UHGV virus genome: UHGV-0016284
Direction: 5' to 3' (one strand)
DNA from: a virus
Length of the DNA stretch: 55,548 nt
A model generated the notes under the pieces. That model made no database searches, had not been told where the DNA came from, and was given only the letters and a program-made list of their open reading frames with translations. The translations under genes were made by a program, and so were the position numbers. This document shows positions 6,407 through 44,603 of the stretch, piece by piece. Position 1 is the first letter of the stretch, and the number at the start of each line of letters is the position of its first letter.

Positions 6407-9400
6407 ATGATTTACACAACTGGAACAATTGCCATCAATGGCAATACTGTTACAGGCACGGGCACAAACTTCTCCGCGCCGCTTTCTCTCATTCGTGTAG
6501 GCTGCACGCTCATTGCTGTTGGCAATCCGGTACAGATCTTTACCATCACAGAAATTAAAAGCGGCACTGAACTGTCAGTGACGCCAGCGGCTAACCCTGC
6601 AATCCCTGCCGGGACAAAATTCAGCATCCTGCTATCTGACTCGATCTCAGTTGATGGGCTTGCTCAGGACGTAGCTGAAACCCTGCGTTACTACCAGGGC
6701 AAGGAAACAGAGATCGCCGCCGCTGTCGAGTGGTGGGAAGATTTTGGCGGTGATGGTCAGGTGGATCAGCTTCTTGCCAACATTCGCGCAGAAACAGCGA
6801 AATCAACCGCTAACGCTCAAAAAACAGAATCTGACAAAAACGCAGCAGAAGCATCAAAAACAGCGGCTGCAAAATCTGCCACGGCAGCAAAAACATCAGA
6901 AACTAACGCAAAGAAAAGCGAGACAGCAGCAAAGACAAGCGAAACCAACGCCAAAACATCAGAGAACAGGGCGCAAGAATATCTGAATCAAATGGGAAGG
7001 CTTACCAGCCCAATGGTTCAATGCGATTGGCCCGTTACAACTGTTGCGACTGACGCTTACGTTAAGATAGCTAAAATTACCAACCCGGGTGGCACCCCCT
7101 GCCACATAACACTAATGATCACTAATGCCGGTAACTACGGGAAAAGTTACGGAAACATTGATTTTGTCGAGATCTCCGCTCGCAATTTTCCCAATGAACT
7201 GAACGCCGACAATGTATCTAGATACTTAAGTATCCGCCGCTTAGGTTCACCGAATCTGGCAACTGATAATCAGATGAGTTATGGGCTTGTTAAGGGCGAT
7301 AACTTTTTTGAGGTCTGGTGTTGTCAGCGAGCATTTACCACAAGCGCAAAGGTCGCTGTACTGGCACAGACTAATGAAAACGTGGAATTATACATTCCTG
7401 AAGGATTCGTTAGACAAGACAACGCACCATCAGGATTTATTGAAAGCCCAGCAGCAAGGATTTACGACCAGGTAAACAAGCCGACTAAAGCAGATTTAGG
7501 TCTTTCTAATGCTATGCTTACAGGCGCTTTCGGTCTTGGCGGTAGCGGTATACCATCAGACGGCAAGATGAGCGATGTAGAACTATTAAAAGCTCTTCGT
7601 GACAAAGGTGGTCATTTCTGGCGTGCTGATAAGCCAGCCGGAAGCACTGCGACCCATTATACCCACGGCGCTGGTATATTCTCTCGGTGTGGCGATACGT
7701 GGGCGGCGTTCAACGTCGAATACGGAACAGGTAGAGTCAAGGTTTACGCTGGTAACGATAATGGACTTAACCAGGGGAATTACTCCCTCAATGAACTATA
7801 CGGAACCCGAAATAAGCCGTCGAAATCGGATGTTGGACTCAGCAACGTAACTAACGATGCGCAGGTGAAAAAATCCGGCGATATTATGTTTGGCGACCTG
7901 GCGATCAAAAAAAGTATACCGTCAGTCTTTCTGCGGTCAGACGATGGAGCCGCCCATGTATGGTTCCAAAACGGGGATCAGTCCGAACGCGGCGTTATTT
8001 ATGCGCCTACAAATACTGATACGCTTGGCGAAGTTCACATCAGGGCTAAAACCGCAAAAGGTGAGACAAAAGGTGATTTTATTGTTCGCCACGACGGTAT
8101 GATTTCAGCCAAAGAGGCAAAAATAGCTTACAAAATCAGCGGAGCCACCGCAGAGCTTGCAAACGCATCAACTAACGTCGCTGATACTACGTTAAAAATC
8201 AGCGGCCCACAGCATACGCCTTTAGTTTTAACTCGCAGTGGAGCAATTAAAAACTTATCTATTGGGTTTAAGGTTGATGATGTTAACCAAAAATACTTGG
8301 GCGTAGCTGGTGACGGTGATTTGTATTTTGGTGATTCTTCTGACCACTCAAAAAACAGCAAAGTAATTACACAAGCAAAACTCGATAGCGGGGTAACGGT
8401 AGGCGGCAAAACAACCTTTTCCGACCTTGCCACATTTAACGCAGGTATGGCGGGATCTATCGAGCCGGAAGCCATTGACGGCCGGACTATTGATTTAAAC
8501 GACTTGATTATTGCTAATACAGAAGCTGGATCCGTTAAATACTATCAATGCAAAACTGTCGCAGGTGGTGCAAATATTACCAATAAGCCTGACGGCGTAA
8601 ACGGTAACTTTTTACTCCGTGTAGAGTCGACTCGTAAGACTACGGGTTCAGATTATGCAAACTTGCAAACGCTGATTGGCAGCGACACAAAACGCATATA
8701 CGTTCGCTTTGTTGTCAATGGAAGTTGGACAGTGTGGAGTCAGGTTGTTGTTTCAGGATGGAATCAGGATGTAACCGTCAGGTCGTTAGCCACACAAAAT
8801 GTTATTCTTGGTAATGTTACTCTTCGAGGGATAAACAAGGATGAAGGGGCGGGGATAGGTGTTGTTTTTGATGGTTCTAACTCTACCGAAAACACCTTCG
8901 GAATAGTTAATACTGGTGGTGGTTCGGCTGTTTTTCACAATTATGCTAAACCGGCTGATTCATCCGCTGTTAATACTGGCGTTCTGATAGGTGGTTATGG
9001 ATCAAGGCCGTGGACAGGCAGCACCTATACAGAGCACAGTAATGTATCTCAACACTTTCTCATGGATGGTGTAGCTTCTGCAACTAACCACGGTGGTTGG
9101 TTCCGTTTGTTAACCACACCATTAAATGCAACCATAGACAAACGTAGACAGACATTTGCTACGAGCAATAATGGCGACCTTTATATAGGTTACGATGTAC
9201 CTATGGGGCTGTACAAGCTAGATACTGCAAATTACAACGGTTTAGACATATTAAACGGTCGCGGCCTTAAGCAAGTAAATAACTCGGTTAATGAAATAGC
9301 CTTAATCACTCCACGAAATGGATCGGCAACCTCTTTAAATTTCAGAGGTGTTGCTTTTGATGGCACAATGACCGGGACTAAGGGTGCAACTCAGAAGGGC

Positions 9401-29359: not shown

Positions 29360-29440
29360 ATACTTCAAGCAAACAAAATGCTCTTTAAAAATCCGGCAGC
29401 GCTGAAATGCGTAGAAATCACCTGAAAATGAGAGGGCATT

Positions 29441-29617
29441 ATGTCTTTTGATAATTACCAATGGCATGACGACTATGAACGAGAGAGCGTCATGCGTGCA
29501 ATGTGCAATGTATGCAGCACGAAGAAAGGAGGCTGTAACGAGTGCAACGAATGCTTAGAACATTGGCTAAGGGCCGGACACGCCGAAAGGCTGAACGAAA
29601 CAGAGAATCAAAAATAA
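29441..29617 (+). CDS. small Cys-rich protein (58 aa, CxxC...CxxC, zinc-ribbon-like)
   Basis: MSFDNYQWHDDYERESVMRAMCNVCSTKKGGCNECNECLEHW...; GAGGG ribosome-binding site; below the track cut-off. Confidence 0.35.
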   Translation: MSFDNYQWHDDYERESVMRAMCNVCSTKKGGCNECNECLEHWLRAGHAERLNETENQK

Positions 29618-29631
29618 TCGGGGTGGTTTTT

Positions 29632-30237
29632 ATGCAAAACCCTAAAAAACCCATAAGACGCCGTTGCAAATGCTGCGGCGTTTTTTTTGAGCCTAAATAC
29701 CATAATCAAACGTGGTGCAGCGATGAATGTCTGGAAGAACTGAAATTTGATCAGCTATGCCGCGACCGTGAGAAGGCTATGAAGGCTATGGAACGGAAGA
29801 AACGCCGTGATAGCCAGCGTGATGAACGCAACCGAAAGCGGAAGCAGTTAAATCCGCGTAGCTATTGGTTAAAGCAGGCGCAAGCGGTATTTAATGCCTA
29901 TATCCGCGAGCGTGACGCGAGTTTGCCGTGTATATCCTGCGGGACTTATTACGGTGAGCAATGCGGATACGATGCGGGCCATTATAGGACTGTAGCCGCC
30001 GCCGGACACCTTCGCTTCAATGAAGATAACGTCCACAAGCAATGTAGGCACTGCAACCAGACACTAGACGGCAACATCGGAGGGTATCGCCCGGCGCTGA
30101 TTCGAAAAATTGGCCTCGCCAGGGTGGTGGCGCTGGAGAACAACAACGAAACTCACAAATGGACGATAGAAGAATGTAAGGAGATCATAAAAGTCTATCA
30201 GGCTAAGTTAAACGCCTTAAGGAGGAAGGCGGCATGA
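29632..30237 (+). CDS. ninG: NinG/Rap-type recombination protein
   Basis: N-terminal CKCCGVFFEPKYHNQTWCSDECLEE zinc motif and C-terminal Cys/His cluster typical of lambda NinG. Start set to ATG 29632 (track start 29542). Confidence 0.7.
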   Translation: MQNPKKPIRRRCKCCGVFFEPKYHNQTWCSDECLEELKFDQLCRDREKAMKAMERKKRRDSQRDERNRKRKQLNPRSYWLKQAQAVFNAYIRERDASLPCISCGTYYGEQCGYDAGHYRTVAAAGHLRFNEDNVHKQCRHCNQTLDGNIGGYRPALIRKIGLARVVALENNNETHKWTIEECKEIIKVYQAKLNALRRKAA

Positions 30238-30635
30238 ACGAGTATACATTTAGCCTACCATACCCGCCATCGAACAACCGCTATTACCGGCATTCACGCG
30301 GTTTTCACTATATCAGCAAGGTTGGGAAAGAATACCGGGAGCAAGTAAAAGACATCATCGAACTATTAAATTTAAACATCAACCTATCTTGCCGACTGGC
30401 AATAGCCATTTATGCCGCGCCGCCGGATAACCGAACCAGGGATCTTGATAATATCCCTAAATGCCTTTTTGACAGCCTTACTTATGCCGGATTCTGGAAG
30501 GATGACGGGCAAATTGACTCAATAAAAATTGTTCGCTGCCGGAAGGTAAAAGGCGGGCGATTGTTTATTAAGGTACGCGAACGCGGCGACCTGTTACCGG
30601 ATATTGGTGAATACGAAACTAATATGTGGGGGTGA
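30234..30635 (+). CDS. rusA: RusA Holliday-junction resolvase
   Basis: N-terminus FSLPYPPSNNRYY and catalytic acidic cluster DLDNIPKCLFDSL. Confidence 0.8.
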   Translation: MNEYTFSLPYPPSNNRYYRHSRGFHYISKVGKEYREQVKDIIELLNLNINLSCRLAIAIYAAPPDNRTRDLDNIPKCLFDSLTYAGFWKDDGQIDSIKIVRCRKVKGGRLFIKVRERGDLLPDIGEYETNMWG

Positions 30636-30638
30636 CAA

Positions 30639-30821
30639 ATGAAAAACGAAATTAAAGATCTGCAAATAGATATTCAGCGCGATGAGCATGATTTAGAGAC
30701 TGTGCGACAAATACAGGCTTTCCACATGCGAGAATTGCTTGCGCTTAAAGAGCTTGAAAGAAAGTTGGTGCAGGCAATATCTGATCGCAAGAAACTTGTT
30801 GCGCGTTACGGGGGCAAATAA
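30639..30821 (+). CDS. hypothetical coiled-coil protein (60 aa)
   Basis: ORF in operon. Confidence 0.4.
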   Translation: MKNEIKDLQIDIQRDEHDLETVRQIQAFHMRELLALKELERKLVQAISDRKKLVARYGGK

Positions 30822-31543
30822 TGAATTTGGAATCAATTCTCAAATTCCACTTCCCAAAATCACCGCGTTTATCAGATGAAAGTCGGGGCACGTCCCCGGA
30901 TGCGTTTAATACTACGGATGCACTAACTGCCGCAGGTATGGCGCAATCGCGCGTAGAGCTTGGTTATAGCGCTTTTTTAGGGAAGATGGAACTATCACAA
31001 GCCGAAAAACATAAGGCCGTAGTTTTGCTTACAGAGCGTTTAAGGGCTATGGCAAAAGATTATGAATACGTTATGGAACTGGACGAGGCCAAACGCAATG
31101 ATCTCATTATTCTTGTTGCCGTTTTCGCGTTTCGGGATTATTGCCAAAGCGCCGCGACGGAAAAAACTTGTATGGAGTGCGGCGGATATAAATTTACGTT
31201 TGACGAATACGGAGAAAAACACCTTTGCAAAAAATGCAAGGGGCATGGGACAGTTCGCAATCATTGTAAACAATGCAAGGGTCGTGGCGAGATACCGGAT
31301 AAAACAGCCAGCGAAGCGGCGGAAATGCCAGTATTCAAAACGTGCCAGCACTGCGGCGGGCGCGGGTACTCGCGTTTCCCTGTAGATCTTGTCCGGCAGG
31401 CGGTTAATCAGCTTGTTTTTCCGGTAAGCCGATCAACATGGTGGAAGAAGTACCGCGCTTTCTATGAAGACGCCATTGCCGAATTGTTCAAAGAAGAGGC
31501 GCGGGCTGACAACGAAATCAAACGAGTGACACGGGGTGAATGA
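30821..31543 (+). CDS. Q: late-gene antiterminator Q (lambda Q-like)
   Basis: Aligns by eye with lambda Q from the N-terminus (MNLESILKFHFPKSPRLSDESRGTSPDAF...TAAGMAQSRVELGYSAFLGKMELSQAEKHKAV) through the Cys-rich zinc region. Confidence 0.85.
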   Translation: MNLESILKFHFPKSPRLSDESRGTSPDAFNTTDALTAAGMAQSRVELGYSAFLGKMELSQAEKHKAVVLLTERLRAMAKDYEYVMELDEAKRNDLIILVAVFAFRDYCQSAATEKTCMECGGYKFTFDEYGEKHLCKKCKGHGTVRNHCKQCKGRGEIPDKTASEAAEMPVFKTCQHCGGRGYSRFPVDLVRQAVNQLVFPVSRSTWWKKYRAFYEDAIAELFKEEARADNEIKRVTRGE

Positions 31544-31743
31544 TGGATAAGCTGGAAATAAACGATCAGTTTGCTGTTATCTTGTTCGAAGATAAAACGG
31601 GCGGTGCATGGTGCAAGAAAGTTACCGGTGCTGAAGCGCGTTTAATATTGGGCATGGCAAGCGCATTAAACGAAGGTGAATTACCAGCCGTGCCAATTGA
31701 GCCTGTTCATATTTACGGACGGAGAAACGACAATGAAGCCTAA
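31540..31743 (+). CDS. hypothetical protein (67 aa)
   Basis: ATGA overlap with the Q stop. Confidence 0.4.
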   Translation: MMDKLEINDQFAVILFEDKTGGAWCKKVTGAEARLILGMASALNEGELPAVPIEPVHIYGRRNDNEA

Positions 31744-32002
31744 ATTAAAGGATCATGAATTTAGGGAGCTTATAAACGGAATAACTGACAAAGCAAGGAC
31801 GTACTCAAATGCACAACAATTAAGGGCGGTAATAGTTACTGAATTGCGGAAATATATAGACTTAACAGATCCGGTTGATGCTATGACTATGGACAAGGCC
31901 ATCAAGCGCCGTTCGGCTGATTGGTCAGTTAGCAACACTGGATTAACCGGATACATCGAAGGCTATAACGACTGTTTACAGGATCATAGCAATGAAAAGT
32001 AA
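31733..32002 (+). CDS. hypothetical protein (89 aa)
   Basis: GGAGA ribosome-binding site before ATG 31733. Confidence 0.4.
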   Translation: MKPKLKDHEFRELINGITDKARTYSNAQQLRAVIVTELRKYIDLTDPVDAMTMDKAIKRRSADWSVSNTGLTGYIEGYNDCLQDHSNEK

Positions 32003-32204
32003 CCGTAAGCGCCTTGTAAGGGCATATGACAAAGCATTAAAGGCTTTTGATGATTTGCGTCGCAATAAGCGCCAGCGCCGTAAATGGGCGCGAATGCTTG
32101 TAAGAGAATGGCATAGCGAGGACTATTTCCTTGATGCCAAGCACATGACGCAGGATGTAGCCGACATGTTAGCTGATGAGAACGTTTATTATATGATGTG
32201 GTGA
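31992..32204 (+). CDS. hypothetical basic protein (70 aa)
   Basis: ORF in operon. Confidence 0.35.
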   Translation: MKSNRKRLVRAYDKALKAFDDLRRNKRQRRKWARMLVREWHSEDYFLDAKHMTQDVADMLADENVYYMMW

Positions 32205-32208
32205 TAAT

Positions 32209-32574
32209 ATGCAAATAATTATTGATTATCTTTGTCATGCTGTGAATACGCTTTTTGGTTTTTATCAACAACCATTCCTAAAAGAATGGGATGAAATGCT
32301 TAATGACATCATTGATAAAGGGTTAATAGTTGAAGTAGGCGAGCTAACGATAAAATTCAATTACGAAGGAAAAGAATATGATATATGGGTAGGTAACAGA
32401 TGGTACGCATACGGGCATATTTATTCAATTGGCGGCAAATACATTAAACGCAGCCAGGAGTTCAGGCCACGATTCCGCACAATGCGCCGCCTGCGTGACC
32501 TGCATATGAATATATTGGAAAATCAGGAAGCGTGTGAACTATTCAAGATCTACGGAGATAAATCATGGAGCTAA
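32209..32574 (+). CDS. hypothetical protein (121 aa)
   Basis: GGTGA ribosome-binding site before the ATG. Confidence 0.45.
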   Translation: MQIIIDYLCHAVNTLFGFYQQPFLKEWDEMLNDIIDKGLIVEVGELTIKFNYEGKEYDIWVGNRWYAYGHIYSIGGKYIKRSQEFRPRFRTMRRLRDLHMNILENQEACELFKIYGDKSWS

Positions 32575-32795
32575 AAATCTGGCAGGCTATCGACGTAGTT
32601 GATAATGAATTATCTATGTTTGCCACTGACGGAAAGCGCGTGGTGATCGCTACATGGACGCGCAACCATGATGATATTTCTTTTCGTCGCAGAACGGCGG
32701 AGTGGTTTTTCTCTGAAGGCGGCTACACGATGAACATCGCACAGCTTGCCAGAATGAAAGATGAAAAGCTGGTGGACAGCTACACAACTGCTTAA
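32565..32795 (+). CDS. hypothetical protein (76 aa)
   Basis: ORF overlapping upstream gene. Confidence 0.4.
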   Translation: MELKIWQAIDVVDNELSMFATDGKRVVIATWTRNHDDISFRRRTAEWFFSEGGYTMNIAQLARMKDEKLVDSYTTA

Positions 32796-32805
32796 CGGGG
32801 TGAAT

Positions 32806-33039
32806 ATGCGTATCTATGAACACAAGCGGGATAAAACCCGCTTTTTTGTCCGTGCTGGCGTGGCGTACTGGTATCACGAATGCGGATACATTGAAGCTGT
32901 TGCTTACGATTTGGATTTTGAACAGGAAAAAGAATGGTTCGACTTCAAGATCTACCGGAAGCGCAAACCAACGCGCGACGAACGCCACGCCATCCGGGAC
33001 TTTTTAATCAGCATTGAGCGTTGGGGGACAGAAGAGTGA
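32806..33039 (+). CDS. hypothetical protein (77 aa)
   Basis: GGGGTGA ribosome-binding site before ATG 32806. Confidence 0.4.
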   Translation: MRIYEHKRDKTRFFVRAGVAYWYHECGYIEAVAYDLDFEQEKEWFDFKIYRKRKPTRDERHAIRDFLISIERWGTEE

Positions 33040-33263
33040 AAGTTAAATTCTTGCACGATCACGGTTATCCGTCATTGAAACAGGTTGTTGGTAAGGTCGT
33101 TAATGTCGTTCATAGCGATGATGTCACTTGCATGATTAACGGTGCTGATTTAATCGCCGCTGGCGCTGATGACCATTACATAAATCCGGCATGGTCGTAT
33201 ACGTTCAGCCTGGGCGACTTCGTTGGCGATAAGGGGCGCGGGCTGGAAGTAGTCGAGGGTTAA
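33036..33263 (+). CDS. hypothetical protein (75 aa, GTG start)
   Basis: GTG at 33036 preceded by GGGGGA. Confidence 0.35.
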   Translation: MKVKFLHDHGYPSLKQVVGKVVNVVHSDDVTCMINGADLIAAGADDHYINPAWSYTFSLGDFVGDKGRGLEVVEG

Positions 33264-33267
33264 CATC

Positions 33268-33516
33268 ATGGACGTTTACGAAGATGTTTACCTGGCCCCT
33301 TCATTCTGTAGCTTTTACTTTCTGATCAACGATAAGACTTACAGGTGCGATTCTGATGGGGTTAGGGAAGAAAAGCTGTTTTGCACCAGGGGGCACCTGG
33401 ACGATTTGGTTTTTGCTGGCATATTCCGTAAACGTCCTGCCAACCTGGAAGAAGAAATGTTGATTGAGGTTATTAAAAATGAAAATCAGGGTAAGTTATT
33501 TCCGGGCAAAAGATAA
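33268..33516 (+). CDS. hypothetical protein (82 aa)
   Basis: GAGGG ribosome-binding site. Confidence 0.4.
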   Translation: MDVYEDVYLAPSFCSFYFLINDKTYRCDSDGVREEKLFCTRGHLDDLVFAGIFRKRPANLEEEMLIEVIKNENQGKLFPGKR

Positions 33517-33532
33517 GGCAACAGGAAAGCAG

Positions 33533-33730
33533 ATGGCGATCCTGGTTAACGAGGCTGGATACATGTTTGTGCTTCAGTCGTGGTGTGTTGTAGATCTTAA
33601 CGACAACTGTCGCCGCCACGCTGCGCGAAGTGCTGTTGGTATGAAAGGCTGGCAACCGCGCGACATGGAAAACTACTGTGACTGGAAATTAGTAGCAAAA
33701 TACACGGTAGATTATAAAGGGGTTTTCTGA
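33533..33730 (+). CDS. hypothetical Cys-containing protein (65 aa)
   Basis: AGGAAA ribosome-binding site before ATG 33533 (track start 33464). Confidence 0.35.
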   Translation: MAILVNEAGYMFVLQSWCVVDLNDNCRRHAARSAVGMKGWQPRDMENYCDWKLVAKYTVDYKGVF

Positions 33731-33748
33731 TAGTGGTGAGGTGGTGTT

Positions 33749-33955
33749 ATGCAGGTTAAATGTGTCGAATCAAATAGCAACATTTTTGTAGTCGATAAGA
33801 TTTATCACGTCTATCAGGTTTTGGGCGTTGACTGCGATGAAAGAGATCAAGTGCTAATTGATGAAGATGGCGACCCGTGGAAATTCCTATATCGCTACGC
33901 CAGCGGCGGCGATGTTATTGGTATTCACATTCGTGCAAAATTTGAACTATGTTAA
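33749..33955 (+). CDS. hypothetical protein (68 aa)
   Basis: GGTGAGG ribosome-binding site. Confidence 0.4.
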   Translation: MQVKCVESNSNIFVVDKIYHVYQVLGVDCDERDQVLIDEDGDPWKFLYRYASGGDVIGIHIRAKFELC

Positions 33956-33964
33956 GGTTTAATC

Positions 33965-34264
33965 ATGAAAAGCGACAAATTCATTGCGTGCTGTTTTGTT
34001 GAAGTTCCTAAAGGTGATGTTTTCTGCAATTATGAATTTAAAGACAGCTTAGGCAGATCTCATGTTGTTGTTGGTAAGCGCGGCGACTGGTTATATATCA
34101 CTGATGGAGACAGGATCTTCACTAAAAACCAGTTGTTAAGAATAAAGGCAGAAAATAATGAAATACCGGTTGGTAATATGGGGATTATGAATTATCACGC
34201 TGGTTTATCGTTAAAACACGATGCGGTAAATAAAGCGCGTAGCTTACCTGGTGCAGAATTTTAA
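33965..34264 (+). CDS. hypothetical protein (99 aa)
   Basis: ORF in operon. Confidence 0.4.
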   Translation: MKSDKFIACCFVEVPKGDVFCNYEFKDSLGRSHVVVGKRGDWLYITDGDRIFTKNQLLRIKAENNEIPVGNMGIMNYHAGLSLKHDAVNKARSLPGAEF

Positions 34265-34287
34265 TTTATTACGAAGGAGAATAACAA

Positions 34288-34611
34288 ATGTCTAAATTTG
34301 TCAGTGTTAAAGTTTTTCGTGGTACTTTTCCGAACGAAGAAAGATTGGGACAATTCGCCGGACAATCTGGCGCATGTTTCCGCGTGGCAACTGACGACGA
34401 AGCTAACGTCAAGTGCTTCCATGTAGCTGAACCGCCTTTTAATGCAGACCATCTTGAAGACCTGAATAGAATTAAAAGCCTTATTTTTGCTTATCTGGCG
34501 TTCCCTGGTATTGGTGATGCTGATGTCGAATTACTTGGCGCTGAACTGTTTGCGGAATACAAAATGACTGAAGGGGTAGAAGGGGGAATTGAAATTGAGC
34601 GCATCAAGTAA
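34288..34611 (+). CDS. hypothetical protein (107 aa)
   Basis: GAAGGAGA ribosome-binding site. Confidence 0.45.
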   Translation: MSKFVSVKVFRGTFPNEERLGQFAGQSGACFRVATDDEANVKCFHVAEPPFNADHLEDLNRIKSLIFAYLAFPGIGDADVELLGAELFAEYKMTEGVEGGIEIERIK

Positions 34612-34849
34612 GCTATACAAGATCAGGTGCAAAGGCGAATACCCTGGCTTTACTACTGGATGCGAATACCTGGGCCATATTGGGTATGGCCCTTTCGGTG
34701 AGTTAGGGATGAATACGATGGACGACGACGGCGACAGCAGGACGCTTGATCTTGATTCTGATGATTTCGAATACATCCCGCCGATAACTTACCGCGACGT
34801 TGATGATTTCATGGCCGAACATGACGACGAGGACGATGATGATGATTGA
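34589..34849 (+). CDS. small highly acidic protein (Asp-rich, C-terminal poly-D/E tail)
   Basis: Track ORF starts at a non-ATG codon; a likelier start is ATG 34709 (46 aa, MNTMDDDGDSRTLDLDSDDFEYIPPITYRDVDDFMAEHDDEDDDDD). Confidence 0.35.
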   Translation: MKLSASSKLYKIRCKGEYPGFTTGCEYLGHIGYGPFGELGMNTMDDDGDSRTLDLDSDDFEYIPPITYRDVDDFMAEHDDEDDDDD

Positions 34850-35036
34850 GTGCCTTATTGCTGTTATTGTTTTGCTTTATATCGCTGGCGCTATCCTGAT
34901 GTCATGTTTTATTAAGGTTAGCGAGGCTGACCGTTGCGGATTTGAGATCCCTTTCTGGCCTGTATTGGTTTTTCTCGCTTTCTTTGATGCTACGGTAGTG
35001 CAGATCAAGCGAGCTATTAAGGAGCGCGAGAAATGA
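34842..35036 (+). CDS. small membrane protein (64 aa, two hydrophobic segments)
   Basis: MIECLIAVIVLLYIAGAILMSCFIKV...FWPVLVFLAFFDATVV; ATG overlaps the upstream stop. Confidence 0.4.
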   Translation: MIECLIAVIVLLYIAGAILMSCFIKVSEADRCGFEIPFWPVLVFLAFFDATVVQIKRAIKEREK

Positions 35037-35203
35037 TTGAAGACGGTATCTATTTGCACAAGTTATTTACCTTCGCTTACTTGGTTAAAGGTGATAGGGT
35101 GTTGATACAAAGCGCGGGCAATAAATATTGGGAATCAAGCGGTATGGATCGCGAACACATGCAAACATTGCTTGATAACGGCCTGATATACAGAACTGCA
35201 TAA
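35033..35203 (+). CDS. small hypothetical protein (56 aa)
   Basis: ATGA overlap with the upstream stop; followed by a terminator. Confidence 0.35.
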   Translation: MIEDGIYLHKLFTFAYLVKGDRVLIQSAGNKYWESSGMDREHMQTLLDNGLIYRTA

Positions 35204-35228
35204 AGCCGTATTTGTAGAGCGCAAACAG

Positions 35229-35252
35229 GACCCGCTTCGGCGGGTTTTATTT
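35229..35252 (+). terminator. rho-independent terminator upstream of the cargo gene
   Basis: Hairpin cccgc-ttcg-gcggg followed by ttttattt. Confidence 0.65.
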
Positions 35253-35264
35253 ATTGGGGGCAAT

Positions 35265-35963
35265 ATGGAAGAAATGGTTTTATTGTCATCAATATGGCAT
35301 AAATTCGGAAGCGAGAAAGGTTATTCCCCAGCTTGCTGGTTGAATAGCAAAAGCGGTGAGGAATATCAAGATAAGTGTGAGTTGCGACGGATAGGGAAAA
35401 AAGGGAGCGCTGCTCGCGGGTATTTTGCTCCGCAATATGTGGCAAATGAGTATGGCGGCTGGTTGGCCAGGTCATTGACTAAAGTATCGTCACTTGTCTG
35501 CCTTACAGATATATGGAGGAATCACGATGCGCCCGAGTCGCGTCGTCCTTATCTTTGGTTGCAACGTCGTGGGTGGATATACAAAGACAGCACAAAAGTT
35601 ATAGGCAGTAAGACTTACGCAACAAAAGATGTGGCCGCTGCTTATGATGCGTGGTTGTGTGGTATTGAGAATAATAGACCTTACGGCAATGAGGCGTTTG
35701 CCAGAATTGAGCACGGCGCTTTATGCATGTATGAACAATTGGTTGGTGTTAAGCTAATTAGACAATATAAGGTATTGGAATACCGGATAGATGGTTATGA
35801 TCCGGTAAATAATATCGCCGTAGAAATTGACGAAGGGCATCATAAAAGCCAGGAGGCATCTGACGCTATACGTCAGCGCCGTATTGAAGAGGAGTTGGGA
35901 TGTTCATTTTTTCGGTGTCGCATATTTGACACGGAAACTGCGCAATATTGCAATGAAAAATAA
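35265..35963 (+). CDS. cargo protein with C-terminal Vsr/DUF559-like (PD-(D/E)xK-type) nuclease domain
   Basis: C-terminus YRIDGYDPVNNIAVEIDEGHH.......DAIRQRRIEEELGCSFFR matches the DUF559/Vsr-like pattern (..VDF..P...L.IE.DG..H......D..R...L...G..V.RF) by eye. N-terminal ~140 aa unassigned. Confidence 0.5.
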   Translation: MEEMVLLSSIWHKFGSEKGYSPACWLNSKSGEEYQDKCELRRIGKKGSAARGYFAPQYVANEYGGWLARSLTKVSSLVCLTDIWRNHDAPESRRPYLWLQRRGWIYKDSTKVIGSKTYATKDVAAAYDAWLCGIENNRPYGNEAFARIEHGALCMYEQLVGVKLIRQYKVLEYRIDGYDPVNNIAVEIDEGHHKSQEASDAIRQRRIEEELGCSFFRCRIFDTETAQYCNEK

Positions 35964-36003
35964 AAAAGATTAGCATATTTACAACAATGCGAAACTGTAA
36001 CTA

Positions 36004-36030
36004 CCCGGCCCCGCGCCGGGTTTTTGCTTT
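36004..36030 (+). terminator. rho-independent terminator immediately upstream of the holin gene (tR'-like position)
   Basis: Hairpin cccggc-cccgc-gccggg followed by ttttt; GGAGGA ribosome-binding site and holin ATG follow. Confidence 0.65.
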
Positions 36031-36045
36031 GTTGGAGGAAAATCT

Positions 36046-36246
36046 ATGTTCGACAGAATACGGGAGGCGTGTGCGTATGTGACTGGGGCCGTAACTGCTT
36101 TTTTCGGCGCGATAACCATCAATGACGTCGCTGTTTTCGTTGGTATCTTATCAACCGTAGGCACATTTGCCGTTAATTATTACTTCAAATCACAGGAGAA
36201 CAAGCGGGCGCAAGAGGAACACGACGCGCGAATGGGGAATAAGTAA
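36046..36246 (+). CDS. holin (small two-TM type, pinholin-like)
   Basis: 66 aa, two hydrophobic segments, charged C-terminus (KSQENKRAQEEHDARMGNK); directly precedes the endolysin. Confidence 0.6.
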   Translation: MFDRIREACAYVTGAVTAFFGAITINDVAVFVGILSTVGTFAVNYYFKSQENKRAQEEHDARMGNK

Positions 36247-36738
36247 ATGATTAGCCAATCGCTGAAAAACAAGATTGTTGCGGCGGCGGCTGGTGGGGCG
36301 ATCGCTATTGCGGGGGCGATGATAAAAGATCTTGAAGGCGTTGAGTATAAGCCATACAGAGATGTCATCGGTGTTTACACGATATGTTATGGACACGTCG
36401 GAAAAGACATCATGCTTGGTAAGACTTACACGCAATCAGAATGCGATGCTTTGTTAAATAAAGATCTACACAAGACCGCAAAAGCGATTGACCCATATAT
36501 CAAAGTCGAAGTATCAGATTTTACCCGCGCTGCACTTTATTCCTTCGCCTATAACGTAGGCGCAACCAACTTCAAAACATCAACCTTATTAAAGCTACTC
36601 AATGACGGCAAGAAATCGGAAGCGTGCGCACAGCTTAAGCGCTGGGTATACGCTGGCGGTAAGAAGTGGCAAGGCCTGGTTAACCGCCGCGATGTTGAAT
36701 ATGCCGTTTGCGAATGGGGTGAGAAATGGACAAGGTGA
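36247..36738 (+). CDS. SAR endolysin (lysozyme, GH24 / T4-lysozyme-like)
   Basis: Catalytic E-x8-D-x5-T triad in [22 protein letters not shown]; N-terminal weakly hydrophobic Gly/Ala-rich signal-anchor-release segment ([17 protein letters not shown]). Confidence 0.8.
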
Positions 36739-37196
36739 AGACGTTAATCATCGCCGTTGTTGTTTGCATTATTGCCAGCCTTACCGCCGTAACGTGTTAT
36801 TACCAGGGTGAGGCAGCAAGGTTACAGGAAGAAGTCACGGTAACGAAAGGCGCACTGAAAACGGCAAGTAACACTATTCAGCAGATGAAGGAGCGAAACG
36901 CCGAACTGTCAAAACTTGATAAGAGGTATCACGATGAGATTAAAGCTATCAGATCTGACATTGCTGATCTGCGCACTGGTATTGACAATGGCACTATCAA
37001 GCTGCGCGTCAACGCCGTGCCAATGCGAACGGACAGTAATACCGGAGCCGCCAGCCGCATTGATGGAGCCTCCTGTAGACTCACTCCCGACGCTGAATCG
37101 GCTTATCTATCCCTCAGAGAACAACTAAAAACGAAAGACGCTCAGATCACTGGGTTACAGGACTACATAAAAACGCAGTGCTTACGCAAAGAATAA
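36726..37196 (+). CDS. Rz-like inner-membrane spanin
   Basis: N-terminal TM helix ([16 protein letters not shown]), coiled-coil periplasmic domain; overlaps the endolysin stop. Confidence 0.7.
36934..37128 (+). CDS. Rz1-like outer-membrane lipoprotein spanin, embedded in the +1 frame of Rz
   Basis: [26 protein letters not shown]: lipobox LSSC; Pro-rich mature peptide; fully nested inside the Rz gene. Confidence 0.6.
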   Translation: MRLKLSDLTLLICALVLTMALSSCASTPCQCERTVIPEPPAALMEPPVDSLPTLNRLIYPSENN

Positions 37197-37533
37197 CAGC
37201 GCGTGGACGTGTCGCCGTTTCCGCCAGCCAGCCATAACCGGGCCAATCCTTCCCGCGAGCGACGGCGGAAATTCAAAAACACGTAATACCGGATCAACAG
37301 TCCCATTAACAGGTCCGGCGCTACCTGGGTAGAAGAAAGCGCCATTTACTCACCTGCCATGCGTAGGACGAGCGCCCGGATCTGTTTATCAGAGATGTTA
37401 AGCAGGTCCAGTTTTATAAAATTCTGCAAACGGTACTCATGCAGTGCCGTTTTTAGTGTTTTATAGCTGTTTTCACTCCCTGCGGTGTCCAGTTTTGCGG
37501 GGGTTATACTTTTCAGGATAGAGGAATATTCTG

Positions 37534-38118
37534 ATGGCTAAGGCTAAAGGCATCAAGTTGCCTCAATTCAAAGTTCCGCTCTTTGAGCATACAATAGTTT
37601 TCTTCTGCCCGACCCGCGACATGTTTTATGAATTTTGCGAAAGGGCTGGAATACCAATTGAACCTGATTTCGAACTGGCAGGAGGGTTGACGCTTACTTG
37701 CACTGGTGAGAAAGGCGGTAACTTCTACGTGATCGCAGTATTCGATAATGAGCTTGGTACGCTGGTCCATGAAGCGGCGCATACGACATTCCACGTTCTA
37801 AGCGATGTAGGTGTCGTGGCAACCACTGATCCAACTCATCCGGCGAACGAGACTTATGCTTACATGGTAGGCCGCATCTTTGACGCATTCTTCCCAATCC
37901 TGGCTGAGTCAAACGAAGCACAGATTGCAGCTATGCAGGCCGCTGAAGTCGTAGAGAAGGCATTAGATCAGGCGGAAAAGGCGACCGATGCAGCAGAACA
38001 GGCAGTGGAACAGGTAGAGGAGCCGAAAGAAGAGAAAAAGCCAGTTAAGAAAGGCAAACGTAAGCCTAAAGCAAAAGAAGCGCTTGTACCGCGTGTTATG
38101 AGCTTTAAACGGGGGTGA
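37534..38118 (+). CDS. hypothetical protein with HExxH motif and Lys/Glu/Ala-rich C-terminal tail
   Basis: LVHEAAHTTFHVL (HEAAH...H) in a ~110-aa N-terminal domain; C-terminal low-complexity basic tail (EEPKEEKKPVKKGKRKPKAKE). Confidence 0.5.
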   Translation: MAKAKGIKLPQFKVPLFEHTIVFFCPTRDMFYEFCERAGIPIEPDFELAGGLTLTCTGEKGGNFYVIAVFDNELGTLVHEAAHTTFHVLSDVGVVATTDPTHPANETYAYMVGRIFDAFFPILAESNEAQIAAMQAAEVVEKALDQAEKATDAAEQAVEQVEEPKEEKKPVKKGKRKPKAKEALVPRVMSFKRG

Positions 38119-38120
38119 TT

Positions 38121-38189
38121 ATGGTTACTTTCCTGTTAGGTTTATTTATCGGAATGGCTGCGGCTGTAATATTGCTGGTTGGTGAATAA
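38121..38189 (+). CDS. minipeptide 1 of tandem array (22 aa, single TM helix)
   Basis: MVTFLLGLFIGMAAAVILLVGE; GGGGGTGA ribosome-binding site; starts 2 nt after the upstream stop. Confidence 0.4.
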   Translation: MVTFLLGLFIGMAAAVILLVGE

Positions 38190-38193
38190 TGTT

Positions 38194-38310
38194 ATGGATG
38201 ATTATATCATTGCCGGATTGATCGGCATTTCTGTATATCTGGTGGGTTTTATTGCAGTTGCACTAATAAACGCAAAGATCAAGCACTGGGGGGGGGGAGG
38301 GGCAAGATGA
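38194..38310 (+). CDS. minipeptide 2 of tandem array (38 aa); contains a G10 homopolymer
   Basis: MDDYIIAGLIGISVYLVGFIAVALINAKIKHWGGGGAR; GGTGA ribosome-binding site; the G10 tract at 38288-38297 encodes WGGGG. Confidence 0.4.
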   Translation: MDDYIIAGLIGISVYLVGFIAVALINAKIKHWGGGGAR

Positions 38311-38381
38311 TTGACCCGCTCATTATCCTTTCTGCCTGCGTCGCTGTATGGCTGGCTATCATGATATTCATTGAAAGCTAA
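38307..38381 (+). CDS. minipeptide 3 of tandem array (24 aa)
   Basis: MIDPLIILSACVAVWLAIMIFIES; ATGA overlap with peptide 2; GGAGGGG ribosome-binding site. Confidence 0.4.
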   Translation: MIDPLIILSACVAVWLAIMIFIES

Positions 38382-38392
38382 AGGTTCTCATC

Positions 38393-38467
38393 ATGAATAT
38401 TTACGATCTAATCTGGTGGTCGTTGGTCGCCGTCATTATCTATTTCTGGTGGAAGAATGTTGTATAG
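38393..38467 (+). CDS. minipeptide 4 of tandem array (24 aa)
   Basis: MNIYDLIWWSLVAVIIYFWWKNVV. Confidence 0.35.
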   Translation: MNIYDLIWWSLVAVIIYFWWKNVV

Positions 38468-38475
38468 GTGAAAGC

Positions 38476-38556
38476 ATGAACGCATACGAAATGCTATTGC
38501 TGGTGGCTGTTATTACAGTTATTGCCGTTGATTTCTATAGAGGGTTAAAAAGATGA
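38476..38556 (+). CDS. minipeptide 5 of tandem array (26 aa)
   Basis: MNAYEMLLLVAVITVIAVDFYRGLKR; AGGTGA ribosome-binding site. The track ORF 38371..38556 is a probable over-extension from a non-ATG start. Confidence 0.4.
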   Translation: MNAYEMLLLVAVITVIAVDFYRGLKR

Positions 38557-43334: not shown

Positions 43335-44603
43335 GTGAGTAAAGAACTGATTCAGGTTAATACCAAATTAACCGCTAATACCATCCGCCGGGAAACATAT
43401 AACGGGCGTGAACACATTGTAGTCCCGTCGTATACGTTGCCCTTCAATATCGTTATGAATCGTGAATATTACCCGGAAGCCGAAATCATTGCTAATTATC
43501 AGTCACTGGAAGGCACACTCGCACCGCTGGGCCATCCTACGGTTGACGGTGAATTTGTTTCCGCATTTAGCCCGGAAGGTCTGAATATTGGCTTTTGTGG
43601 AGCGTGGAACAGAAATGTTGAATTACGCGGCAACCGTGTTTATGTGGAAAAATGGGTGGATGTTGAAACCGCCAGCCATTCAGAACAAGGCCGCGAATTA
43701 TTAAGCCGACTGGAAGCACTGGAAAAAGGCGAAAGCAAAGATCCGATCTGGTCATCTGTTGCCGTATATCGTCAGCGTATGCCAGCTACTGAAGAAATGA
43801 AAGCCCAGGGCGCTGACAGCGTTGTCAAAATCATGTCGATTGACCATGACGCCATCTTACTGCATGAACCGCCAGCCGCATCGCCTGAACAGGGCGTTGG
43901 CCTGATGGTTAACACTGACCAGGCGAAGCCGTTAATGGCGGTGGCAATGAAAGAAAACAGCTATCGCACGCTTGAAAGACAACTTGAGGAAGCGGCGCGT
44001 AAACTGTTCCCCGATGCAGATTATGTCTATGTCGTGGACTTCACTGATAAAGAAGTGACGATTGCTACTAACGCTGAAAATGCTCAAGTTTGCACGTATG
44101 AAAAACAGGCTGATAAAATAATTCTCAATAATGGCGAGCTTGCAACCAATGAGGAAAGTAAATCATGGTTCGCTCAGTTCGCTGAACACCTATCCAATCT
44201 TTTCTCACTGAATGAAAAAATTAAGGCCAATAAATCGGAGGACGATCCCATGCCTTTGACCAAAGAAGAACGCGCCGAACTGGTAAAAGAAATTAACGAA
44301 GGCTTAGCCGCTAATATCGCCAATGCAGTAGCAGAGGCATTAAAACCAGTGCAGGCAAGCGTTGAAGAATTACAGACCAATCAGAAAGCGATTAAAGAAG
44401 AGATCGCAGCAAACGCAAATAAAGAAGTAGCAGAAAAACGCGCCGCAGTTGCGAAAGTACACGGCGAAATTGTTGCTAACGCATTAAGCGGTGAAGCGTT
44501 AGAAGCAATGTTTAAATCCCTGGGCAAAGCCGCGCCGATGGCAACCAACGCAGCAAGCGAAGGTAAAAAAGGCGAAGTACCAGACTTTAACACTTATTTC
44601 TAA
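43335..44603 (+). CDS. putative prohead scaffolding / protease-like protein
   Basis: Precedes the capsid gene; C-terminal half is Ala/Glu/Lys-rich coiled coil typical of scaffolds. GTG start with GGAG ribosome-binding site (track start 43320 is TTG). Confidence 0.45.
   Translation: MSKELIQVNTKLTANTIRRETYNGREHIVVPSYTLPFNIVMNREYYPEAEIIANYQSLEGTLAPLGHPTVDGEFVSAFSPEGLNIGFCGAWNRNVELRGNRVYVEKWVDVETASHSEQGRELLSRLEALEKGESKDPIWSSVAVYRQRMPATEEMKAQGADSVVKIMSIDHDAILLHEPPAASPEQGVGLMVNTDQAKPLMAVAMKENSYRTLERQLEEAARKLFPDADYVYVVDFTDKEVTIATNAENAQVCTYEKQADKIILNNGELATNEESKSWFAQFAEHLSNLFSLNEKIKANKSEDDPMPLTKEERAELVKEINEGLAANIANAVAEALKPVQASVEELQTNQKAIKEEIAANANKEVAEKRAAVAKVHGEIVANALSGEALEAMFKSLGKAAPMATNAASEGKKGEVPDFNTYF

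Follow-up and report, generated by a model that had tools for sequence, protein, structure and literature searches.

A conserved block of small genes between Q and the lysis cassette of an mEp021-like phage is probably early accessory cargo

The window analysed here (the whole stretch of DNA, 55,548 nt) is an mEp021-like (mEpimmI) phage, and the block of small genes between its Q and lysis genes is typical of these recently described coliphages. We consider it reasonably likely that the block is a conserved small-gene accessory region of the mEpimmI group, nin-like in character, expressed early and situated between Q and the target site of Q. This reading is favoured because of a promoter-like element in front of the holin gene, the type of the Q protein and the overlapping or tightly packed genes from Q to the end of the block. 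With the late promoter most likely located immediately before the holin gene, the cargo in the block is probably expressed early, not late. All features described below are on the plus strand.

An earlier note on this DNA had described a tightly packed run of about 15 small plus-strand ORFs (56-121 aa) after Q, and the ORF listing bears this out: 15 consecutive ORFs, here o1 to o15, lie between the Q stop codon (31543) and 35203 and fill 31540-35203 (about 3.7 kb). The flanking genes had also been named correctly. Q (30821-31543, 240 aa) is a member of the Q-lambda family (PF03589, E = 1.2e-29; PMC9388147), matches lambda Q (PDB 7ubm_Q) with E = 6e-38 and carries an extra CxxC zinc-ribbon insert of about 33 aa, and the lysis cassette (36046-37196) consists of the holin (36046-36246), the lysozyme (36247-36738) and Rz (36726-37196) with an embedded Rz1 (36916-37128). 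The earlier description needs one correction, in that a sixteenth gene and two strong terminators intervene between the 15 ORFs and the holin. This gene, o16 (35265-35963, 232 aa), combines an N-terminal domain (phrog_23715, with a weak KilA-N match) with a C-terminal Vsr-like nuclease domain (DUF559; AbaSI/PvuRts1I-type; PADLOC mREase_II, E = 2e-8). It was present at full length in 0/53 relatives, in most of which o15 is the final gene ahead of the holin, and its cassette interrupts the intergenic region between o15 and the holin. An intrinsic terminator with a 9-bp stem is predicted at the cassette's 5' edge (35227-35258), with no counterpart at that position in mEp021, mEp554 or the related locus L005.

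The ORF starts were refined with PHROG alignments and the annotation of relatives. The junctions within the block range from -38 to +23 nt, and a GGAG/GGGG motif precedes most of the ORFs. A switch would find no space after Q, since the Q stop codon overlaps the o1 start (ATGA) and the gaps from Q to o15 in the window are at most 23 bp; in the annotated relatives, too, the ORF after Q abuts or overlaps the Q stop. When the window was compared with nine relatives and the differences were counted by codon position (1st/2nd/3rd), a third-position excess was detected in 14/15 block ORFs, for example in o1 (29/4/141), o4 (55/33/254), o6 (31/16/173), o7 (34/13/133), o11 (131/107/287) and o13 (45/27/141; 60/81/305 for its N-terminal half alone). 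Because the differences fall mostly at third codon positions, this comparison shows the block ORFs to be real protein-coding genes. In addition, 13 of the 15 matched PHROG families, with E-values down to 1e-61.

The block had been called unusually long, which is true relative to lambda, where Q ends at 44509 and S starts at 45186. Within the mEpimmI phages every member has such a block: the Q-to-holin distance in 54 related loci ranges from 2003 to 6801 bp, so the block is a group trait, and at 4.5 kb the window lies below the median of 5.45 kb. The block DNA is 87-91% identical to, and syntenic with, that of mEp554, mEp010, mEp044, MagusPhagus and mEp013, and it was matched in 35/5426 E. coli genomes.

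The earlier impression that none of the genes is recognisable also stood, as no block ORF matched a family of known function: searches of Pfam, NCBIfam, PADLOC and PDB were uninformative, and the PHROG matches were to families of "unknown function", with one weak secondary match of o4 as the sole exception. The first four genes are the acidic o1 (31540-31743, 67 aa, phrog_35000; in 49/53 relatives), o2 (31733-32002, 89 aa, phrog_29262; 46/53), the basic o3 (31992-32204, 70 aa, pI 9.9, phrog_8758; 49/53) with its Arg-rich stretch RRNKRQRRKWAR, and o4 (32209-32574, 121 aa, phrog_16975; 52/53), which has a homologue with 41% identity within the block of the distant relative L104. The core genes, each in 53/53 relatives, are o5 (32565-32795, 76 aa, homologue of mEp021 gp38), o6 (32806-33039, 77 aa, homologue of gp39), o7 (33036-33263, 75 aa, GTG start, phrog_5009), o8 (33268-33516, 82 aa, homologue of gp41) and the basic o9 (33479-33730, 83 aa, phrog_38609). 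The o5 homologue of L104 sits in the upstream early region, indicating gene mobility, and the structure model of o8 was too poor for use (pLDDT 60). They are followed by o10 (33749-33955, 68 aa, acidic; phrog_31142, E = 4e-8), a rare variant found in 11/53 relatives at a median identity of 41%, o11 (33965-34264, 99 aa, homologue of mEp021 gp43; 39/53), the acidic o12 (34288-34611, 107 aa, phrog_23107; 50/53), o13 (34595-34849, 84 aa, TTG start, phrog_25234; 49/53), o14 (34821-35036, about 66-71 aa, phrog_10061; 47/53) and o15 (35033-35203, 56 aa, homologue of mEp021 gp45, phrog_15318; 42/53). Inspection of o14 revealed two hydrophobic segments, which makes a small membrane protein probable. 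By these counts most block genes are near-core within the group, and mEp021 is a viable phage without o1-o4, o10 and o12-o14. In published mEpimmI records all block genes are labelled hypothetical, and PHANOTATE truncates the o13 homologue.

No convincing late promoter had been located previously. We found a credible candidate just before the holin and not after Q, which points to an early block. From pattern, PWM and layout relative to lambda pR', the proposed pR' with its sigma-dependent pause element (35948-35988) would comprise a -35 TTGCAA (35948-53), a 17-nt spacer, a -10 TAGCAT (35971-76), 6 nt and AACAAT (35983-88), followed by G. The proposed tR' (36003-36026; ACCCGGCCCCGCGCCGGGT then TTTTT, -21 kcal/mol), equivalent to TERM_5 of mEp021, lies about 20 nt past the pause-like element and 20 nt ahead of the holin start codon; across 54 loci its stem is constant and its loop varies, and it is an annotated terminator in mEp021 and mEp010. 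All 54 loci have conserved the whole element (-10, 6-7 nt, AACAAT pause-like element, intrinsic terminator), which is true of no other noncoding element; in close relatives its conservation is not above that of the adjoining holin gene. It is also present in relatives with Q proteins 75% and 47% identical. The layout in mEp021 (TTGTAG-17-TAAAAT-ATTACCT-AACAAT-G, then the terminator) matches that of lambda pR' (TTGACT-17-TAAATT-TGACTC-AACGAT-G), and the same layout occurs at sites in L104, L106, L108 and L109. The -10 of the window departs from the TAAAAT of the group because the o16 cassette was inserted there.

The pattern TA...T-N6/7-AA[CT][AG]AT was searched from Q to the lysis genes with lambda as positive control, where it matched exactly once, at the known pR'. 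One match each was found in Citrobacter and Serratia prophages in the classical layout, just after Q with a terminator next, and one in L109 (Q 75% identical) and in L104/L105 (Q 47%), just before the holin with a strong terminator next, the L104 site having diverged in sequence (TATAAT-TCCCTC-AATAAT). The PWM promoter score of the pre-holin site in the window was 9.3 bits, the third-highest from Q to the holin, and in 39/53 loci the site ranked 1st to 4th. The strength of this promoter is uncertain because the -35 is poor in 14/53 close loci (TCGCGC, 6.2 bits) and in L104 (AAGCGC).

Given a Q of the Q-lambda family, the window should contain a qut site of the lambda type. The Q-dependent late switch would thus lie not after Q as in lambda, but in the intergenic region of about 80-110 bp upstream of the holin, and with the switch placed there the block would form the distal end of the delayed-early operon that runs rightward. 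In the sequence upstream of the NinF-like gene we read a nutR2-like site (29379-29412), consisting of a boxA-like TGCTCTTTAA at 29379-29388 and, at 29399-29412, a small hairpin that resembles boxB and has an A-rich loop; we take the site to be nutR2 by its resemblance to the rrn/lambda boxA. The sequence is also present in mEp021, and nutR2 has been placed downstream of a methyltransferase gene (PMC11893012). Transcription of the block would then start at an early promoter, carried out by polymerase that Gp17, an N-like protein, has modified at nutR2, and its translation may be coupled to that of Q. The 5' part of o6 contains an intrinsic terminator (32824-32849, AAGCGGGATAAAACCCGCTTTTTTGT, a 7-bp stem then T6), which is the longest near-invariant run in o5-o9, is annotated as T9 in mEp554 and is conserved in 54/54 loci, one of them with a compensatory change from GCGGG/CCCGC to GCGCG/CGCGC. 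It may gate the distal genes like the terminators of the lambda nin region. More tentatively, from size, charge and dispensability, the products could be small, individually dispensable single-domain proteins (such as the SH3-like acidic o13, the Arg-rich o3 and the membrane protein o14) that act early on host or competitor proteins, in takeover, anti-defence or exclusion, and not in lysis or as virion parts.

It is unlikely that the block is instead late cargo, read together with the late genes by Q-modified polymerase from a late promoter at the Q/o1 junction, as stx is in Stx phages, with the o6 terminator or the pre-holin terminator serving as tR'. A pR'-like pattern match does exist where lambda has its pR', at the Q end and o1 start (31526-31566; GTGACA-16-TAAGCT-7-AACGAT). 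Its pause-like hexamer is the exact lambda AACGAT, GAAATAAACGAT does not vary among loci with o1, and 38/54 close loci have a pattern match at the Q end. However, the site is absent in mEp021 (viable, Q gene 92% identical), in 15 other close loci and in L104 and L109; mEp021, L104, L109 and the other loci without the site would need a common binding site, because their Q is of the same type. It also lies within coding sequence, its -10 lacks the first T in eight loci, its PWM score is only 7.3 bits, no G follows the hexamer and the nearest terminator (32824) is 1.26 kb downstream. In addition, one chance match of the pattern per 5 kb is not unlikely (mononucleotide shuffling gave about 1.5 matches of a narrower pattern per 55-kb strand). 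Late expression would agree with the mass-spectrometric detection of mEp021 gp41, the o8 homologue, in virions, but virions also contained the early protein Ssb.

The extremely acidic peptide that had been pointed out is o13, which ends in DDFMAEHDDEDDDDD and has a net charge of -18 in 84 aa (pI 4.1). Its predicted fold (pLDDT 83) is an SH3-like beta-barrel followed by a C-terminal helix and the acidic tail, and the poly-Asp/Glu tail and acidic DDDGD/DLDSDD segments are conserved across the o13 family. The earlier proposal that it is a DNA-mimic anti-restriction protein of the Ocr/ArdA kind seems distinctly unlikely to us. The very high negative charge density, the small size and the family-wide retention of the acidic parts are as expected of Ocr (T7 gp0.3) and ArdA, and a place in an early operon, as proposed here, would suit anti-restriction; sequence and structure comparison, on the other hand, detected no similarity to Ocr or ArdA in sequence or fold. 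The idea has its basis in charge and is neither refuted nor supported. A comparable small, non-essential phage beta-barrel protein is Gp54 of phage Bas11 (PDB 9axb; PMC11578894), known only as a trigger of CapRel. It has no detectable sequence similarity to o13, which adds the C-terminal helix and the poly-acidic tail.

Very unlikely, in our view, is that the block genes are morons or lysogenic-conversion genes, active in the prophage under promoters of their own and of use to the host, for instance in defence or exclusion. The mosaic content with gains and losses between relatives, the resemblance of o14 to a small membrane protein and the self-contained o16 insertion, which is flanked on both sides by terminators and encodes a restriction-type nuclease domain, agree with this. 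However, the overlapping or abutting genes leave promoters no room, nor is there space for one between the terminator at 35227 and the o16 start codon; no promoter-like site is conserved in the block (the -10 of a site within o5 is lost through synonymous changes in many loci), and most of the genes are near-core and fixed in order. That the ORFs arose by chance in DNA that is noncoding or decaying, for which the missing functional annotation is the sole point, has virtually no probability left and is refuted by the third-position excess, the PHROG matches, recurrence in up to 53/53 related phages and the confident o13 model.

The closest known system is the flexible region between Q and the lysis genes of the mEpimmI phages mEp021, mEp554, mEp010, mEp044, mEp013, mEp515 and MagusPhagus (PMC11893012, which discusses neither the block nor a late promoter). 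Genes and gene order of the window correspond to those of these phages at 83-99% DNA identity, and Q, holin, lysozyme, Rz and the pre-holin terminator are shared. The window differs in its own gene mix, with o1-o4 and o12-o14 (which mEp021 lacks) and the rare o10 variant, and in the unique nuclease-domain gene before the holin. The nin region of lambda (ninA-ninI with tR2-tR4, in the pR delayed-early operon) likewise consists of small, overlapping and mostly dispensable genes adjoining Q in the early rightward operon, as we propose for the block, and in both an intrinsic terminator is embedded, so that full expression would depend on N-type antitermination. In contrast to the nin region, which lies between P and Q, the block is downstream of Q. 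Synteny with known nin genes, which according to the earlier note would speak against its reading, was not found: no homologue of a Nin protein is among the 15 ORFs, and true NinF, NinG and RusA homologues lie upstream of Q.

The lambda late switch (Q/pR'/qut/tR'; PMC9388147) and the window have in common a Q-lambda-family protein and the succession of a -10, 6-7 nt, a -10-like AAYRAT hexamer with G, an intrinsic terminator and lysis genes. The mEpimmI site, in contrast, is 2-6.8 kb from the Q gene, which the lambda site adjoins, the terminated RNA, of 194 nt in lambda, would have a length of about 45 nt, some members of the group have a weak -35 or none, and the Q of the window carries the additional zinc-ribbon insert. 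The Q-S cargo of Stx and other lambdoid prophages (stx, tRNAs, nanS-p) resembles the block as a variable insert, several kilobases long, that separates Q from the lysis cassette. In those prophages the cargo is late and depends on Q, as pR'-tR' comes immediately after Q, whereas in the window the pR'-like element is downstream of the cargo.

The ORF listing gave 15 consecutive plus-strand ORFs (o1-o15) from the Q stop codon at 31543 to 35203, and the run of tightly packed small genes after Q described in the earlier note is borne out by an excess of differences at third codon positions and by PHROG matches. With start codons refined from PHROG alignments and the annotation of relatives, the products are 56-121 aa long, neighbouring ORFs overlap by up to 38 nt or are spaced by up to 23 nt, and an upstream Shine-Dalgarno-like motif is found for most ORFs. 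When the window ORFs were compared with nine related loci, most nucleotide differences fell on third codon positions, the counts at positions 1/2/3 being 29/4/141 for o1, 55/33/254 for o4, 31/16/173 for o6, 34/13/133 for o7, 45/27/141 for o13 and, for comparison, 114/75/390 for Q. PHROG families were matched by 13 of the 15 ORFs (E down to 1e-61), the best matches all being of "unknown function", and o4 had a weak secondary match to phrog_14894, a "membrane protein" in the moron/host-takeover category (E = 1e-5). Pfam, NCBIfam and PADLOC searches of all block ORFs yielded nothing useful, o4, o12 and the o13 profile retrieved no sequence from the PDB, and 30000-38500 had no match in Rfam. Judged by codon-position pattern and homology, the block ORFs are real genes, mostly near-core in the group. 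Paralogous expansion was rejected, as an all-against-all phmmer comparison among 16 ORFs gave no significant pair. We also observed that o3 (31992-32204) encodes a basic protein of 70 aa (pI 9.9) with an arginine-rich stretch, LRRNKRQRRKWARM, which resembles the arginine-rich RNA-binding motifs of N-type proteins.

The flanks were also identified correctly at first reading: Q (PF03589, E = 1e-29) precedes the block, and a gene with an HP1-type holin family match, then lysozyme and Rz/Rz1, follow it. In lambda the distance from Q to S is 676 bp. Between the block and the holin there are, beyond what was first described, a further gene, o16 (35265-35963, 232 aa), and two strong intrinsic terminators, one of them (35227-35248) between the block and o16.

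The block DNA is 87-91% identical to that of mEp554, mEp010, mEp044, MagusPhagus and mEp013 and in part also matches mEp021 and mEp515; seven phage records fall at 87-91% identity, two of which cover at least 80% of the block. The Q protein is 83-98% identical in 46 IMG/VR loci, and the gene order is common to the window and its mEpimmI relatives. DNA similarity and synteny over Q, the block and the lysis genes thus place the window in the mEpimmI (mEp021-like) group, whose defining properties are a requirement for host Nus factors, common immunity and an N-like Gp17 with three nut sites. These phages were described in 2025 as Nus-dependent, non-lambdoid temperate coliphages of human faeces, and their frequency in human faecal samples is reported to be on a par with that of lambdoid phages (PMC11893012). 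Related prophage segments were detected in 35 of 5426 complete E. coli genomes, none of which covers 80% of the query, and the region is therefore mosaic.

Both Q and holin were present in 54 loci (nine from GenBank, 44 from IMG/VR and the window), in which the distance from Q stop to holin start varies from 2003 bp in mEp021 to 6801 bp (median 5452 bp); at 4502 bp the window is under the median. In annotated relatives this interval holds 8 to 28 small same-strand ORFs. Homologues of o5-o9 occur in all 53 relatives, of o4 in 52, of o12 in 50, of o1, o3 and o13 in 49 each, of o14 in 47, of o2 in 46, of o15 in 42 and of o11 in 39, while o10 has a homologue in 11 and full-length o16 in none. The conservation of these ORFs across the loci indicates that the block content is not random cargo, and the block characterises a phage group that is known but has been little studied. 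As mEp021 is viable without o1-o4, o10 and o12-o14, those genes are dispensable. The o8 homologue (gp41 of mEp021) is a core gene according to published work, and mass spectrometry detected it in virions; our o8 structure model (pLDDT 60.5) was too poor for testing the published RegA-like suggestion, and no fold search was made from it. Searchable papers contained no description of a late switch or of the 8-28 small Q-to-lysis genes in mEpimmI phages. Many relatives also have an intergenic element in mid-block, upstream of the o11 homologue (5430-5505 in mEp554, 4135-4205 in the close locus L005), in which a terminator comes after a perfect CRP-like palindrome (in mEp554, TGTGATCTTTATCACA). 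The sequence TTTACAAAATGGC is common to this element and to the terminator/nutR2 region that precedes NinF (around 29285 in the window), and the window itself is without the element, o11 directly following o10.

Q matches full-length lambda Q (PDB 7ubm_Q, E = 6e-38), and PF03589 is the Q-lambda family (PMC9388147); by these matches the window Q is a member of that family and homologous to lambda Q. In the cassette described for this family, pR', a sigma-dependent pause element and a terminator come after the Q gene (PMC9388147). Relative to lambda Q, the protein has an extra insert of about 33 aa (residues ~115-147, 31163-31261) with additional CxxC pairs, which matches the DnaJ CXXCXGXG domain and forms a second zinc-ribbon-like element; homologues with the same domain occur in Xenorhabdus and Serratia. 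A 23-nt run within the gene (31106-31128, ATTATTCTTGTTGCCGTTTTCGC) is almost invariant over 45 distinct Q sequences and is the longest such run in Q.

There is no room for a promoter and terminator after Q. In the window its stop codon overlaps the start of o1, and whichever gene comes next in the annotated relatives, its ORF adjoins or overlaps the stop of Q. Noncoding conservation across all 54 loci is confined to a region of 80-110 bp upstream of the holin, and the layout of this region matches that of lambda pR' (lambda sequence J02459). Lambda pR' has a -35 TTGACT, a spacer of 17, a -10 TAAATT, the gap TGACTC and the pause hexamer AACGAT, then GGG. The site of mEp021 reads TTGTAG, 17, TAAAAT, ATTACCT and AACAAT in the same order, followed by GCG, about 13 nt and ACCCGGC...GCCGGGTTTTT. 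In the window the corresponding elements are TTGCAA (35948), a spacer of 17, TAGCAT (35971), the gap ATTTAC and AACAAT (35983), after which come GCG, the strong terminator at 36003-36026, GGAGG and the holin start at 36046. The earlier note had found no convincing late promoter; a candidate pR'-like element is present before the holin in 54 of 54 loci. Its terminator has a constant stem and a variable loop and corresponds to the annotated TERM_5 of mEp021.

We searched for the pattern TA...T-N6/7-AA[CT][AG]AT from the Q start to the lysis genes with lambda as the positive control, in which the single match was at the known pR'. Single matches shortly after Q, each followed by a terminator, were also obtained in two prophages of classical layout, one of Citrobacter (Q 40% identical; TTTACA-17-TAATCT-GAAACC-AATGAT-GG) and one of Serratia (Q 32% identical; TTTACT-16-TAATTT-CTTTCT-AACGAT-GGG). 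The distant mEp-like locus L109 (Q 75% identical, 6.5-kb block) has its single match directly upstream of the holin, and the pair L104/L105 (Q 47% identical, 3.1-kb block) has a single pre-holin match, TATAAT-TCCCTC-AATAAT-GG, followed by a terminator with a 10-bp stem. The pre-holin match is found in 54 of 54 close loci, and the exact pattern of the element occurred in IMG/VR only in the mEpimmI group, once per contig. By PWM promoter score the site is among the top four between Q and holin in 39 of 53 loci (10.2 bits, versus 12.9 for lambda pR'), and its -35 is poor in 14 close loci and in L104. The candidate switch lies 4.4 kb downstream of the Q stop in the window and 2.0-6.8 kb downstream in relatives. 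It is favoured because a Q type common to all these phages should require a target site common to them as well, and we consider it probable that a lambda-type late switch is here separated from Q by the block, which would then be a nin-like early region downstream of Q.

The window site has been altered by the gene next to it. In mEp021 and mEp554 the pre-holin element is directly 3' of the o15 homologue, and in two close loci (L005 and L009) a gene of 75 aa, equal to only the N-terminal part of o16, is inserted at this spot with flanking GCCGTATTTGT direct repeats. The window has a longer version, o16, which brings its own upstream terminator and sits exactly in the o15-holin intergenic region (35204-35970), and the insertion replaces the usual -35 region and turns the -10 TAAAAT into TAGCAT, the new TTGCAA at the right spacing coming from the 3' end of the o16 cassette. 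The N-terminal domain of o16 is phrog_23715 with a weak KilA-N match, and the C-terminal domain is a Vsr-like nuclease of the AbaSI/PvuRts1I type (DUF559; PADLOC mREase_II, E = 2e-8) with an EIDEGHH motif like that in AbaSI. A full-length o16 homologue was found neither between Q and holin in 53 relatives nor in 50,697 phage records.

Alternatively, a promoter at the end of Q could transcribe the block as late cargo, and a second, weaker pattern match does exist at the Q/o1 junction (31526-31566; GTGACA-16-TAAGCT-7-AACGAT) with an exact AACGAT in 38 of 54 loci, where GAAATAAACGAT has no synonymous variation among the loci carrying o1. This site is absent from mEp021, L104 and L109 and lies inside coding sequence with no nearby terminator. 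The string may be a chance match or a secondary promoter. Late cargo is an unlikely account of the block. Were it correct, the block would be an ordinary lambdoid-style insert, of interest only for its proteins of unknown function. A promoter-like site at the start of o5 (CTGGCA-16-GATAAT), paired with the o6 terminator, was rejected as an alternative pR'/tR', since synonymous changes have removed the critical last T of the -10 in many loci.

Should pR' lie immediately in front of the holin, the late switch would come after the block, which would then be part of the rightward delayed-early operon. This reading is supported by gene packing, a nutR2-like site, the terminator in o6 and the place of the o5 homologue in L104. 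From Q to o15 no intergenic gap exceeds 23 bp, and before Q the NinF-like, NinG, RusA and 60-aa ORFs likewise run into or adjoin each other and Q. NinG (PF05766) is at 29542-30237, upstream of Q, and no match to a Nin family was found for o1-o15 in Pfam, PHROGs or NCBIfam. Upstream of the NinF-like gene we read from the sequence a nutR2-like boxA, TGCTCTTTAA (29379-88), with a boxB-like hairpin, at a position that agrees with the published placement (PMC11893012). Within the first 45 nt of o6 there is a predicted intrinsic terminator (32824-32849); all 54 loci conserve it, and no near-invariant run in o5-o9 is longer. By analogy with the lambda nin region, this putative terminator would make the distal genes dependent on processive antitermination. 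Its synonymous sites do not vary among the 54 loci, barring one compensatory double change, seen in a single locus, and one G-U change. The distant locus L104 has its o5 homologue in the upstream early region (2122-2448) and homologues of o4, o6, o7 and o9 between Q and holin. The block of L104 also holds a HAD/PNKP-like gene of 179 aa, and L109 has a PAPS-reductase-like gene of 251 aa.

The early programme is the usual home of host-takeover and anti-defence genes. A late promoter just before the holin, if true, would mean that Q and its target site can be separated as modules, that the block belongs to the early programme and that about 12 near-core small proteins form a candidate set for bacterial-defence screens. 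A far-reaching extension, which we regard as quite improbable, is that conserved small early genes, arrayed over 2-7 kb, split the Q cassette throughout this gut coliphage family by separating Q from its target site, and that the array is an early arsenal of new host- or defence-binding protein families with the SH3-like, poly-acidic o13 as a new nucleic-acid mimic or anti-restriction factor.

The acidic protein o13 (34595-34849, TTG start) has the C-terminus DDFMAEHDDEDDDDD, a net charge of -18 and a pI of 4.1. In its N-terminal half alone the differences at the three codon positions are 60/81/305, and this third-position excess supports the long TTG-start frame; codon-position statistics and the confident predicted fold together support a protein of 84 aa. 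In mEp554 (6603-6841) PHANOTATE calls only the C-terminal ~59 aa of the homologue. The homologues form only 52 clusters; wherever a source is named it is E. coli or a phage, and the 50,697 phage records contain the gene in no more than four phages, all mEpimmI. The acidic tail and the DDDGD/DLDSDD segments are conserved. The AlphaFold model (pLDDT 83) predicts a five-stranded SH3-like barrel and a C-terminal helix, the acidic tail at the C-terminus being of low confidence. A Foldseek search of the model against the PDB gave nothing below E = 0.2, the best matches being SH3 domains, and the best match in BFVD, a set of predicted viral protein structures, was an uncharacterised 58-aa protein of phage LL5 (46% identity). 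No known DNA mimic appeared in any list of structure matches, and charge is therefore the one feature that argues for an anti-restriction role. Profile searches of Pfam, NCBIfam, PADLOC and the PDB gave no match placing o13 in the Ocr/ArdA family. With Ocr and ArdA, which inhibit type I restriction enzymes, it has the strong net negative charge in common, whereas their fold displays carboxylates in a B-DNA-like array and the o13 model predicts no such fold.

The organisation proposed here can be set beside three known systems. In Stx-phage-type late cargo the genes are downstream of pR'/tR' and Q-dependent, whereas here the block precedes the pR'-like element that all loci conserve, and 38 of 54 loci also have the weaker site at the Q end. 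A lambda-type switch consists of a -10, a pause hexamer 6-7 nt further on and an intrinsic terminator before the late genes, all of which the candidate in the window shares (35971-36026), but the lambda-type switch adjoins the Q gene and the candidate does not. In operation, the lambda-type switch involves Q binding to a Q-binding element, a sigma-dependent pause at about +16 and Q-dependent read-through. The lambda nin region is located between the replication genes and Q, whereas the block is downstream of Q; the embedded terminators of the nin region tie its distal genes to N-type antitermination, and the block has a conserved putative terminator in o6.
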